From Octopus vulgaris (lineage: Eukaryota), in NCBI GenBank assembly GCA_951406725.2, contig OX597843.1, forward strand, positions 5,456,001 through 5,520,000: a stretch of DNA of 64,000 nt, read 5' to 3'. The notes beneath the pieces are model-generated. The model saw only the letters and a program-made list of their open reading frames with translations. It was not told where the DNA came from and did not search any database. Of this stretch, positions 3,743 through 9,288 are shown one piece after another. The stretch's first letter is position 1. Each line of letters opens with the position of its first letter. The position numbers and the translations under genes are program-made.

Positions 3743-4028
3743 ATTGAAAAGAATGGAAAACACATCCATTCTGTTGATGCAAAGAATGTGAAACTCTCTA
3801 ATTGGTTGCGATATGTAAACTGTGCAAGGACCGACGAAGAACAGAATTTAACTGCTGTTCAGAAAAATGGTAATATTTACTATAGAACATTAAGAAACAT
3901 TGATCCTGGTGAAGAATTACTTGTTTGGTATGGAGAGGAATATGCCAAATATCTTGGTATCTCACAAGGTGGACAACTGAAAGCAAAGACTGTTGGAGCA
4001 AAATTATCAGAAACAATCAGTTCAGCAG
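3743..4028 (+). CDS. PRDM-family (PRDM9/7-like) gene: exon encoding the C-terminal half of the PR/SET domain
   Basis: AG|ATT acceptor and G|GTAAAA donor. Encodes SNWLRYVNCARTDEEQNLTAVQKNGNIYYRTLRNIDPGEELLVWYGEEYAKYLGI, which closely resembles the PRDM9 PR/SET motif NWMRYVNCARDDEEQNL...FYRT...ELLVWYGDEY. Upstream exons not seen in the window. Confidence 0.9.
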
Positions 4029-4179
4029 GTAAAAATCTCTCACTTATAATTTACTTTCTCTTTCTCTCTCTCTCTTCATTTAGTCATCATCATCATCACC
4101 AACATCAGTACCACTTCTATTGCTGCCAACAGTCTCTCTCTCTCTCTCTCTTTCTTCCCTTAGAAGCAACAGATGTATA

Positions 4180-4506
4180 GGAGCACTCCGTCGGTTGCGA
4201 CGACGAGGGTCCCACCTGATCCGATCAACGGAACAGCCTGCTCGCGAAATTAGCATCCAAGTGGCTGAGTACTCCACAGACATGTGTACCCTTAACGTAG
4301 TTCTCAGGGAAATTCAGCAGGACACAAACTGTGACAAGGTTGGCCCCATTTGTATTACAGGTACAACTCATTTTTGCCAGCTGAGTGGACTGGAGCAACG
4401 TGAAGTAAAGTGTCTTGCTCAAGGACTCAACGCATCGCTGGGAATCGAACTCACGACCTTACAATCGCGAGCCAAATGCCCTAACCACTAAGCCACGTGC
4501 CTTCAC
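4180..4506 (-). mobile_element. tRNA-derived SINE, full length
   Basis: Minus strand starts with an A/B-box tRNA-like head (GTGGCTTAGTGGTTAGGG...GAGTTCGATTCCC); 3' tail shared with the element at 1-285. Confidence 0.75.
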
Positions 4507-4769
4507 CAACAGATGTAGATATCTATATAATTAGATGCGACATGCAACAGTATTAGTAGAAGATGATCTGCAGATGGGGAACTAGGGGGCATCCATTAAG
4601 GACTCAGATGGAGTTTTGCTGAAATAAGGTTTCCCTCTGATATATATATATATATATATATATATATATATATATATATATATATATATATATATATATA
4701 TATATATATATATATATATATATATATATATATATATATATATATATATATGTATATATATATATGTGT

Positions 4770-5160: not shown

Positions 5161-5652
5161 ATATACATATATATATATATATATATATATATATATATAT
5201 ATATATATATATATATATATATATATGTATATATATATATATATATATATATATATATGTATATATATAATGATAGAAAGGGTAAGATAACAAAAGAAAG
5301 AAAGAGACCTCGTTATTATGTAAATAGAGGAATTTATCTGTAATTGTAATATGTGACAATTATTCGGTAGCCAAGATAAAACTCTGAGTTTCGGATGCTG
5401 AGGTGGAAAAAAAGTCAAGGGTTGTCCATACTGCAGATGTCAGATGTGCTACCGTTACACCAAAGCAAACCTTAGAATTTTCTCCATCTAATTAAGAAGC
5501 TTTGTTCTTAACACCAAGAATTTGTCATCCAAGGAGTTTTCTCACCCAATATTCTCTATGATTCCATTAACAAAGATGTATTTATGTATGTGAGTGCATT
5601 TATTTGTATTTAAAAACATGTCTTTCTCAGTCATGTTTCTTTATATTTACAG

Positions 5653-8600
5653 GTAACTGCCGTTCTTCAATTTCACGGAATGGTAAATTTCCTGGCAGTA
5701 CCAAAGTGTTTGAAGACTCGAAGCAACATAGAATTAATTTGTCACGAAAAAATAATAAAATACAAACACAATTTATTAAGAGTGACACAAACTGTATAGG
5801 GGATCATTTATTGAATTGCAGTAATGGGAATTCCAAAGAGAAACCATTCCGGTGTGAGGACTGTGGAAAGACATTCTCTAATTCTTGTATATTCAAAAAA
5901 CACAAGAAAATACATTCCGGAAAGAAAGCATTCCAGAGTAAGGATTTCGGAAAGAAATTTTCTGACTCAAGTATATTCAAAGAACACAAGAAAATACATT
6001 CCGGAAAGAAAGCATTCCAGAGTAAGGATTTCGGAAAGAAATTCACTGATTCTAGTGACTTAAGTAAACAAGTGAGAACAGACATTGGAGACAAACCATT
6101 CCAAGGTAAGAAACGTGGTAAGTCACTCCGTCATTCCGGTGCCTTAAAAATATGTGAGCGAAGACAAACTGGAAAGAAACCATGGAAGAAACAGTGGAAG
6201 ACAGTCTCTCATTTTGGTGATTTCAAAAGACATGAGAGAATACAAAATGGAGAGAAACCATTCCAAGGTAAAAAACAGAAGACATTCTGTCTTTCTGGTG
6301 ATTTCAAAAGACGTGAGCGAAGACAAACTGGAAAGAAACCAATTTGTTCTGAAAAATGTGAGGAGTCATTCTGTGATTCTGATGCCTTAAAAACGCAAAA
6401 GAGAAGAAATATTGAAGAGAAACGATTCCAAGGTAAGAAAGAGAGGAAGACATTCTCTCATTTTGGTGATTTCAAAGGACGTGAGCCAAGACAAAATGGA
6501 GAGAAACCAATTTGTTCTGAAAAATGTGATAAGCCATTCCGTCATTCTAGTGCCTTAAAAATATGTGAGCAAAGACAAATCGGAAAGAAACCATTCCAAG
6601 GTAAGAAGCAGAGGAAGACATTCTGTCTTTCTGGTGACTTCAAAAGACGTGAGCGAAGACAAACTGGAAAGAAACCAATTTGTTCTGAAAAATGTGAGGA
6701 GTCATTCTGTGATTCTGATGCCTTAAAAACGCAAAAGAGAAGAAATATTGGAGAGAAACCATTCCAAGGTAAGAAACAGAGGAAGACACTCTCTCATTTT
6801 GGTGATTTCAAAAGACATGAGCAAAGACAAAATGGAGAGAAACCAATTCGTTCTGAAAAATGTGAGGAGTCATTCTGTGATTCTGATCCCTTAAAAACGC
6901 AAAAGAGAATAAATATTGAAGAGAAACCATTCCAATGTAAGAAAGAGAGGAAGACACTCTCTCATTTTGGTGATTTCAAAAGACGTGAGCCAAGACAAAA
7001 TGGAGAGAAACCAATTCGTTCTGAAAAATGTGAGGAGTCATTCTGTGATTCTGATGCCTTAAAAACGCAAAAGAGAAGAAATATTGGAGAGAAACCATTC
7101 CAAGGTAAGAAAGAGAGGAAGACACTCTCTCATTTTGGTGATTTCAAAAGACGTGAGCCAAGACAAAATGGAGAGAAACCAATTCGTTCTGAAAAATGTG
7201 AGGAGTCATTCTGTGATTCTGATCCCTTAAAAACGCAAAAGAGAATAAATATTGAAGAGAAACCATTCCAATGTAAGAAAGAGAGGAAGACACTCTCTCA
7301 TTTTGGTGATTTCAAAAGACGTGAGCCAAGACAAAATGGAGAGAAACCAATTCGTTCTGAAAAATGTGAGGAGTCATTCTGTGATTCTGATGCCTTAAAA
7401 ACGCAAAAGAGAAGAAATATTGGAGAGAAACCATTCCAAGGTAAGAAACAGAGGAAGACACTCTCTCATTTTGGTGATTTCAAAAGACGTGAGCCAAGAC
7501 AAAATGGAGAGAAACCAATTCGTTCTGAAAAATGTGAGGAGTCATTCTGTGATTCTGATGCCTTAAAAACGCAAAAGAGAAGAAATATTGGAGAGAAACC
7601 ATTCCAAGGTAAGAAAGAGAGGAAGACACTCTCTCATTTTGGTGATTTCAAAAGACGTGAGCCAAGACAAAATGGAGAGAAACCAATTCGTTCTGAAAAA
7701 TGTGAGGAGTCATTCTGTGATTCTGATCCCTTAAAAACGCAAAAGAGAATAAATATTGGAGAGAAACGATTCCAAGGTAAGAAAGAGAGGAAGACACTCT
7801 CTCATTTTGGTGATTTCAAAAGACGTGAGCAAAGACAAAATGGAGAGAAACCAATTCGTTCTGAAAAATGTGAGGAGTCATTCTGTGATTCTGATCCCTT
7901 AAAAACGCAAAAGAGAATAAATATTGGAGAGAAACGATTCCAAGGTAAGAAAGAGGAAGACACTCTCTCATTTTGGTGATTTCAAAAGACGTGAGCCAAG
8001 ACAAAATGGAGAGAAACCAATTCGTTCTGAAAAATGTGAGGAGTCATTCTGTGATTCTGATGCCTTAAAAACGCAAAAGAGAATAAATATTGGAGAGAAA
8101 CCATTCCAAGGTAAGAAAGAGAGGAAGACACTCTCTCATTTTGGTGATTTCAAAAGACGTGAGCCAAGACAAAATGGAGAGAAACCAATTCGTTCTGAAA
8201 AATGTGAGGAGTCATTCTGTGATTCTGATCCCTTAAAAACGCAAAAGAGAATAAATATTGGAGAGAAACGATTCCAAGGTAAGAAACAGAGGAAGACACT
8301 CTCTCATTTTGGTGATTTCAAAAGACATGAGCAAAGACAAAATGGAGAGAAACCAATTCGTTCTGAAAAATGTGAGGAGTCATTCTGTGATTCTGATCCC
8401 TTAAAAACGCAAAAGAGAATAAATATTGAAGAGAAACCATTCCAATGTAAGAAAGAGAGGAAGACACTCTCTCATTTTGGTGATTTCAAAAGACGTGAGC
8501 CAAGACAAAATGGAGAGAAACCAATTCGTTCTGAAAAATGTGAGGAGTCATTCTGTGATTCTGATCCCTTAAAAACGCAAAAGAGAATAAATATTGGAGA

Positions 8601-9288
8601 GAAACGATTCCAAGGTAAGAAACAGAGGAAGACACTCTCTCATTTTGGTGATTTCAAAAGACGTGAGCCAAGACAAAATGGAGAGAAACCAATTCGTTCT
8701 GAAAAATGTGAGGAGTCATTCTGTGATTCTGATGCCTTAAAAACGCAAAAGAGAAGAAATATTGGAGAGAAACCATTCCAATGTAAAAAGTGTGAGAAGT
8801 CATTCTGTCATTCTGGTGATTTCAAAAGACATCAAAGAATCCACTCTAGAAAGAAACCGTTTGAGTGTAAGGAATGTAAGATGTCGTTCAGTCAGTTTGG
8901 GAACTTAAACAGACACAAGAAGATACATTCTGGAGAGAAACCGTTTGGTTGTAAGAAGTGTGGCAAGAGATTTTCTCAGTCCACGAATTTAATAAGGCAC
9001 CAAAGGACCCATAGCGGAGAGAAACCCTTTCAGTGTAAGGAATGTGAGAAGAAATTCTCTGACTCGACAAACTTAAATAAACATCGAAGGATCCACTCTG
9101 GAGAGAAACCATTCCGGTGTAAGAAGTGTGGAAAGGCTTTCTCGCAGTCTGTTAACTTAGCAGTTCATCAAAGAGTCCACACGGGCGAGAAGCCATATCA
9201 GTGCAAGAAGTGTGGGAAGGAGTTCGTTCAGTCTGGGCACTTAACGACACATACCAAAGTACATAGTAAAAAGAAACCATGGCAATGA
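5653..9288 (+). CDS. PRDM9/7-like gene terminal exon: 1 intact C2H2 finger, long degenerate finger array, 6 intact C2H2 fingers; 2-bp frameshift near 7952
   Basis: Phase-1 acceptor ACAG|GT matches the 4028 donor. CEDCGKTF...HKKIH finger near the start; six CxxC-x12-HxxxH fingers with GEKP-type linkers at about 8775-9265; stop TGA at 9286-9288. One repeat has AAGAAAGAGG instead of AAGAAAGAGAGG, splitting the frame into ORFs 5604-7979 and 7924-9288. Confidence 0.85.
6250..8780 (+). repeat. Coding minisatellite, 168-bp unit (two degenerate zinc fingers), about 15 copies
   Basis: Marker TGTGAGGAGTCATTCTGTGATTCTGAT at 6357, (6525 variant), 6693, 6861, 7029, 7197, 7365, 7533, 7701, 7869, 8035, 8203, 8371, 8539, 8707. 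Confidence 0.95.

Follow-up and report, generated by a model that had tools for sequence, protein, structure and literature searches.

Truncated paralogues of PRDM9 with slowly evolving zinc fingers are known (PMC5519329, which also names the residues Y341 and Y357; PMC11703093; bioRxiv 10.64898/2026.09.07.749791), and pseudogenised and truncated PRDM9 duplicates are described as common in salmonids (PMC11703093) and also in cnidarians, for which degenerated fingers are mentioned (bioRxiv 10.64898/2026.09.07.749791), all according to the parts of these papers that were available. Concerted finger evolution has been reported for Lottia in the available part of PMC2779102. Octopus PRDM9 goes unmentioned in the accessible parts of PMC4760075, PMC8835667 and PMC12513265, and our literature search turned up no cephalopod PRDM9 study, so that the gene described here, together with its relative in Octopus bimaculoides, opens the question of PRDM9 hotspots in octopuses. 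The gene lies at positions 3743-9288 of a 64,000-nucleotide (nt) stretch of the Octopus vulgaris genome (assembly GCA_951406725.2, contig OX597843.1, forward-strand positions 5,456,001 to 5,520,000), which we refer to as the window. It encodes part of a PR/SET domain that resembles that of PRDM9, followed by an exon in which fingers that have lost their zinc ligands are homogenised and the intact fingers appear old.

The array of defective zinc fingers

Between a single intact C2H2 finger (unit 0) and six intact distal fingers lie 34 finger-length units without two or more of their zinc ligands. Unit 1 keeps just its two His, and at most one of the four ligands is kept in all 33 of units 2-34, where the shortened units 4 and 5, with in-frame deletions of 6 and 3 nt, respectively, were read from the translation. 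Units 6-34 alternate between two types, A and B, and thus form a 168-bp dimer present in 14.5 copies (Tandem Repeats Finder, 92% match). These 29 units comprise 17 distinct sequences, with variants common to non-adjacent copies in an interleaved fashion, and the core copies are 0-5 nt apart. The six distal fingers, in contrast, differ from one another by 24-36 of 84 nt (mean identity 0.53) and keep all 24 ligands. The earlier note on this DNA had described one intact finger, more than 30 ligand-less units of 28 amino acids (aa) homogenised as a 168-bp dimer, and six intact, mutually diverged fingers, that is, a reversed pattern in which the dead fingers are the homogenised ones, and all of this was borne out. 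It had overlooked the deletions in units 4 and 5 as well as donor-like AG/GTAAG sites, which occur in 12 units and are all of phase 1.

Exon B, which holds the array, was partly present in 20 of 24 sequencing runs, and the contigs of four of the 24 (X1, X9, X10, and X11) were aligned, to window positions 5400-6510 only; small-share runs were not used. X1 and X10 are DNA; X9 and X11 were taken as RNA by guess, backed for X11 only by a splice junction. X9 carries organism label A and X11 label B, and the four runs together carry three labels (A, B, and D). The bar for a contig join was 31 letters; the uncovered bins X11 5894-5931 and X9 5628-5893 were not taken as absence, and contigs drop variants, those of X1 missing even a multi-copy window allele at 6406. 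Variants of the array were found in all four runs aligned, under all three labels. A 157-nt allele with three copies in the window has a contig depth of 32.8 in X1 vs 9.7-11.7 for unique contigs, which we take as a hint, as depth is not copy number and X1 is possibly the source sample.

For the intact fingers, the proportions of synonymous (pS) and non-synonymous (pN) differences are 0.47-0.95 and 0.20-0.33, and on these values the fingers are old and constrained, while dead unit A and unit 35, the first distal finger, give pS 0.28 and pN 0.29. Variants within the A units amount to 2 synonymous and 13 non-synonymous changes vs 16 and 63 sites, raw counts since gene conversion breaks the model. 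X11 and the window disagree at 10 positions over 460 nt of dead units (3 synonymous, 7 non-synonymous, 0 stops; p = 0.45 against neutral) and at none over 230 nt of linker and unit-0 start (Fisher p = 0.036 vs dead units); for X10 the counts are 5 of 199 in dead units vs 0 of 220 in the linker (p = 0.024). The probability that 51-101 substitutions in the units would leave no stop is 0.002-0.10, and both old indels, in units 4 and 5, are in frame. With no stops, old indels in frame and amino acids changing about neutrally, the frame appears to be modestly kept while the residues drift; only frame and stop avoidance look selected, and modestly so. An apparent STOP in the table of B units was rejected as a multi-hit codon artefact.

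The consensus dimer has 45% charged residues and a net charge of +5. AlphaFold2 (AF2), run with a 15-row alignment, gives a predicted local distance difference test score (pLDDT) below 50 for units 31-33 (residues 1-79) and models unit 34 as a finger (pLDDT 64-83), to which it was probably drawn by the alignment. A disordered, charged spacer is therefore plausible from the composition and the model. ESM Atlas recognition was low (1253), with matches unnamed or in zinc-finger clusters, and serves as a lead only. No near-identical protein was found in homologue searches within their length limits, and no run of at least two ligand-less units appeared among 211 PR/SET proteins in a weak pattern scan that also missed those of O. 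bimaculoides. The ~900-aa charged spacer that the earlier note proposed thus keeps its plausibility as regards charge and disorder; its continuity requires that a deletion in unit 25 be an error, and nothing indicates selection for a spacer, given near-neutral amino acids and similar non-coding arrays nearby. Comparison among units, which that note had proposed as a check, returned the neutral residues and the modest avoidance of stops and frame breaks given above.

Features of the gene in the window
Feature	Position	Strand	Basis or remark
Exon A: C-terminal half of PR/SET and short linker, phase 0-1	3743..4028	+	AG/GT borders, profile match; upstream exons outside the window
Tyr codon at PRDM9 Y341 position	3881..3883	+	Alignment with PRDM9
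Tyr codon at PRDM9 Y357 position	3929..3931	+	Alignment with PRDM9
Intron, GT..AG, with (TA)n tracts	4029..5652	+	X11 spliced contig; same junction in O. bimaculoides protein
Exon B start: 63-aa linker	5653..5840	+	60% identity with O. bimaculoides
Unit 0: intact C2H2 finger	5841..5924	+	
Units 1-5: older, diverged defective fingers	5925..6335	+	Units 4 and 5 with in-frame deletions
Units 6-34: 14.5 copies of 168-bp ligand-less finger dimer	6336..8769	+	Variants in X1, X9, X10, X11
2-bp deletion in AGAG run of unit 25	7952..7955 (approx.)	+	Frameshift, stop 7977-7979
Six intact, mutually diverged C2H2 fingers	8770..9273	+	Contacts -1,2,3,6: HGDR, QGNR, QTNR, DTNK, QVNV, QGHT
Distal-frame stop codon	9286..9288	+	

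PR/SET affinity, distal fingers and origin of the dimer

Exon A matches PRDM2_PR (E = 1e-31), and its peptide has PRDM9 as the best of 15 PDB hits, with 84 bits vs 67 for PRDM14 and at most 58 for the others (PRDM6, 7, 8, 13, and 15 being absent from those 15). The longer SET of O. bimaculoides gives 130 vs 81 bits in such a comparison, and its named matches are mostly PRDM9-like. Judged by these scores the PR/SET domain is nearest to PRDM9 among the PRDMs compared, as the earlier note had it, by a margin of 17 bits in the PDB comparison. Two Tyr residues of exon A align with the Tyr of IFYRT and VWYG in PRDM9, positions that we take to be Y341 and Y357 and that had been correctly placed before. 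Both are also found in PRDM14, and the VWY Tyr also in PRDM1, so that the pair is not diagnostic of PRDM9. KRAB, SSXRD and the Y276 position belong to a part of the gene upstream of the window. That full-length PRDM9 exists in molluscs follows from a chiton protein that aligns with lizard PRDM9 over KRAB- and SSXRD-like segments.

The six distal fingers have a PoD of 0.23 (26-aa windows); values elsewhere are 0.44 for O. bimaculoides (4 fingers), 0.55 for scallop and 0.62 for chiton, and three further invertebrate proteins lie at 0.23-0.36. In the available part of bioRxiv 10.64898/2026.09.07.749791, values run from 0.29 to 1.0 for the full-length PRDM9 of cnidarians and vertebrates and from ~0.16-0.20 upwards for truncated forms. 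The hotspot signature of homogenised functional fingers with diversity at positions -1, 2, 3, and 6 is not displayed by the six distal fingers, which by within-array comparison have the slow change and low PoD typical of truncated SET-ZF paralogues.

The nearest protein is XP_014789468 of O. bimaculoides (P0012; "zinc finger protein 391, partial"), to which the exon-A peptide is 81% identical. It shares the exon junction and, at 60% identity, the linker. Unit 0, unit 2 and the SEKC-type unit each have one counterpart in it, matching at 22, 20 and 13-15 of 28 aa, respectively, and functional fingers come next; the N-terminal 70 aa of this protein have no match within the window. Its defective units are single, in contrast to the octopus array described here, and its functional fingers resemble one another more closely (mean identity 0.74, with the PoD given above). 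The record is partial at both ends and carries a GPYEG Tyr, presumably at the Y276 position; with Tyr at all three positions and its fingers homogenised in part, it has the appearance of a PRDM9 that has gone unrecognised. Since O. bimaculoides has single defective counterparts, ligand loss preceded amplification. The closest match to unit A is the first distal finger (24 nt apart for the consensus, 19 nt for unit 9), and for this reason the dimer is the last dead unit (SEKC-type, B) joined to a copy made from the first live finger (A), the pair having been duplicated and then homogenised.

The DNA runs X1 and X10 contain a second, ~91% identical copy, seen over the intron end and exon B (window 5406-6100), with 41 differences in 470 nt in one comparison and, in another over ~290 nt, 25 differences and an 18-nt gap. 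They also contain contigs in which an intact CxxC comes after unit-2-like sequence, so that a small family of related genes exists. Tandem amplification at the scale of the dimer is common in the window. Eight near-perfect non-coding arrays with periods of 60-155 bp occupy 7.3 kb of it (1441-2336, 12060-13785, 14292-15144, 25594-26246, 40553-40945, 46863-48468, 56039-56933, and 59559-59840), several of them derived from repeat-element fragments. Keeping the frame is what allows a 168-bp unit to survive inside an exon.

Frameshift, transcripts and readings of the locus

Unit 25 has 82 nt, as a 2-bp deletion in its AGAG run shifts the frame into a stop. As assembled, the exon is therefore split into two open reading frames (ORFs) of 802 and 455 aa, where the earlier note had implied a single reading frame through the array, and the protein loses all six distal fingers. 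The core array contains 8 shared substitutions, no singleton substitution and one singleton indel, which is this deletion; a lone singleton deletion is compatible with a long-read consensus error. The deletion is not among the contig variants of the four runs, which is no evidence either way, as contigs drop variants and the alignments span 5400-6510. A real deletion would fit these data as well.

Exon B at 5653 joins exon A in frame. A 245-nt contig of X11 equals 5650-5879 identically and has a 15-nt loose end equal to 4011-4025, whose letters match no other place in the window; this is the predicted splice junction, and the intron bins 5400-5627 are without depth in X11. A gapless 460-nt contig of the same run, 6014-6473 (units 2-7), crosses the donor-like sites at 6104 and 6431, and in a contig of X9 the distal fingers are preceded by 18 letters of a B unit. 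The gene is transcribed and spliced on this evidence, with a junction under the 31-letter bar, which forms part of the reading that we favour. The earlier note had named lack of transcription and removal of the repeats by splicing as findings that would speak against it; the spliced X11 contig argues against the one and, for units 2-7, the gapless contig against the other.

We give about an even chance to the reading that the gene is a PRDM9 paralogue that has left the hotspot role and in which minisatellite turnover made dead fingers into a passive, disordered linker. The sequences show that the ancestor shared with O. bimaculoides had defective proximal fingers ahead of a functional array; that one defective pair, a SEKC-type unit and the copy of the first distal finger, was amplified to ~14.5 dimers in the pattern of unequal exchange and gene conversion; and that, at the level of sequence, unit residues drift neutrally with stops and frame-breaking indels modestly under-represented. 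The 2-bp deletion would be a consensus error or a rare allele, and in the protein a disordered linker of ~950 aa, net basic in charge, would separate PR/SET from six stable fingers. It may be a PRDM-type chromatin regulator with fixed targets, in which the fingers would bind a stable motif, PR/SET would methylate H3 nearby and the linker would be tolerated as a passive part; we infer the binding and catalysis of the product as well as its translation and tissue. Several points weigh against this reading. The sole full-length sequence at hand carries the frameshift, and error and neutral mutation alike would yield one indel in 2,014 bases, since six non-coding arrays of the window have 5 short singleton indels per 4,921 bases. 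The X11 junction has just 18 letters on the exon-A side, 5880-6013 is unbridged by any X11 contig, and X11 bears an organism label (B) differing from that of the best-matching run; the array-to-finger join of X9 has just its 18 letters on the array side, likewise under the bar. The no-stop test is weak at its low end (p ~0.1). Paralogy is itself presumed, and the second copy could be the sole orthologue. In a quick PR/SET tree (105 rows, 128 columns; few true outgroups) the gene is sister to O. bimaculoides with a Shimodaira-Hasegawa-like approximate likelihood ratio test (SH-aLRT) value of 84, and this is as far as the phylogeny suggested earlier goes: its deeper nodes do not resolve and do not place the gene.

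If the deletion is real, the gene may be a decaying duplicate: its product would be a PR/SET protein of 870 codons (exons A and B) that carries a single finger along with dead repeats, and relaxed selection on the gene would have let the array expand (compare primate PRDM7). We consider this possible but somewhat doubtful: the frameshift in the assembly, the neutral amino-acid evolution of the array, the second gene copy, a SET just 81% and a linker just 60% identical to the congener's protein, and the frequency of dead or truncated PRDM9 duplicates in salmonids and cnidarians all fit it, whereas the spliced transcript and stop-free units in X11, the 24 of 24 ligands kept by distal fingers with pN well below pS, the absence of stops among 51-101 substitutions and a linker that is the same in organisms A, B, and D do not. 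The frameshift also counts against a selected, length-tunable spacer in an active recombination PRDM9, in which the dimer number would set the reach from fingers to nucleosome or the basic repeats would bind DNA, RNA or partners. Its units show neither amino-acid constraint nor positive selection, its distal fingers lack concerted evolution and have a PoD below the range of full-length cnidarian PRDM9, and many local tandem expansions provide a background; we hold it unlikely, even though the Y341/Y357 positions are kept, molluscs do have a full-length PRDM9 that includes KRAB- and SSXRD-like segments, derived array variants are common to organisms A, B, and D, and the array is net basic and of low confidence in AF2. 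Equally improbable, in our estimate, is the broader claim of a full-length meiotic cephalopod PRDM9 whose turnover moved to the dead-finger spacer with its target frozen; were it true, the distance from binding site to histone mark, or a basic, disordered interaction surface, would depend on the number of dimers and so vary both among and within Octopus species, and a selected spacer in a full-length gene would represent a novel way for PRDM9 to evolve. We find it hard to believe that the array is intronic or an assembly artefact. Tandem arrays are error-prone in assemblies, and the 12 donor-like sites of one phase would suit splicing out; against this stand the X11 contig running through two of them, the lack of any matching-phase acceptor among 7 YAG sites in 8690-9100 (before or in the distal fingers), the array variants in all four runs aligned and, as a hint, the ~3x unique depth of the thrice-present 157-nt allele in X1.

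Neighbouring features and comparison with described genes

Just upstream of exon A, an ~870-bp fold-back (2750-3619, centre ~3311) has arms that are 91-100% complementary, one of them split by a SINE-like insert (SINE, short interspersed nuclear element). In the 3' flank, 9235-9315 and 9401-9481 form an 81-bp duplication, 94% identical, of the last codons and stop of the gene, beside SINE-like copies. On the reverse strand, 19690-30782 holds exons of a WRNIP1/MgsA-like AAA+ ATPase gene, which is useful as a synteny marker; MgsA_C matches at 19690-20376 (E = 4e-18), and 29994-30782 contains a Walker A-like motif as well as a Cys-rich one that is N-terminal. A 316-aa ORF at 43695-44645 (+) has AT-hook motifs (E = 3e-4), and a 357-aa ORF at 58123-59196 (-) has Ala/Gly/Asn-rich tracts, a coiled-coil-like C-terminus and no Pfam match.

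Among described systems, the truncated SET-ZF paralogues (teleost PRDM9beta, salmonid alpha2.2, cnidarian SZ) resemble the octopus gene in slow fingers, low PoD, split arrays in one exon and coexisting copies. Teleost PRDM9beta has its catalytic Tyr substituted, whereas the octopus gene keeps the two Tyr tested, and no amplified ligand-less array is described for these paralogues in the parts of the literature available; a wider search of incomplete coverage likewise found no amplified, homogenised array of ligand-less fingers. Primate PRDM7, a weakly constrained PRDM9 duplicate without a finger array, would match if the frameshift is real, but Y357 is substituted in PRDM7 and the octopus gene encodes that Tyr and six intact fingers. 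With canonical full-length PRDM9 (mammals, salmonid alpha1, cnidarians; scallop P0274, chiton P0182) it has in common the type of PR/SET, the two tested Tyr, and the placing of all fingers in one last exon with minisatellite turnover there. In canonical genes, however, it is the functional fingers that undergo homogenisation, their diversity lying at the contact residues (PMC2779102, available part), whereas here the dead units are homogenised and the functional ones old. The array illustrates one route by which a long low-complexity linker is born from dead domains, and it offers PRDM9 theory a natural control, concerted evolution in a finger exon without selection on DNA contacts, so that homogenisation by itself does not indicate a hotspot function.

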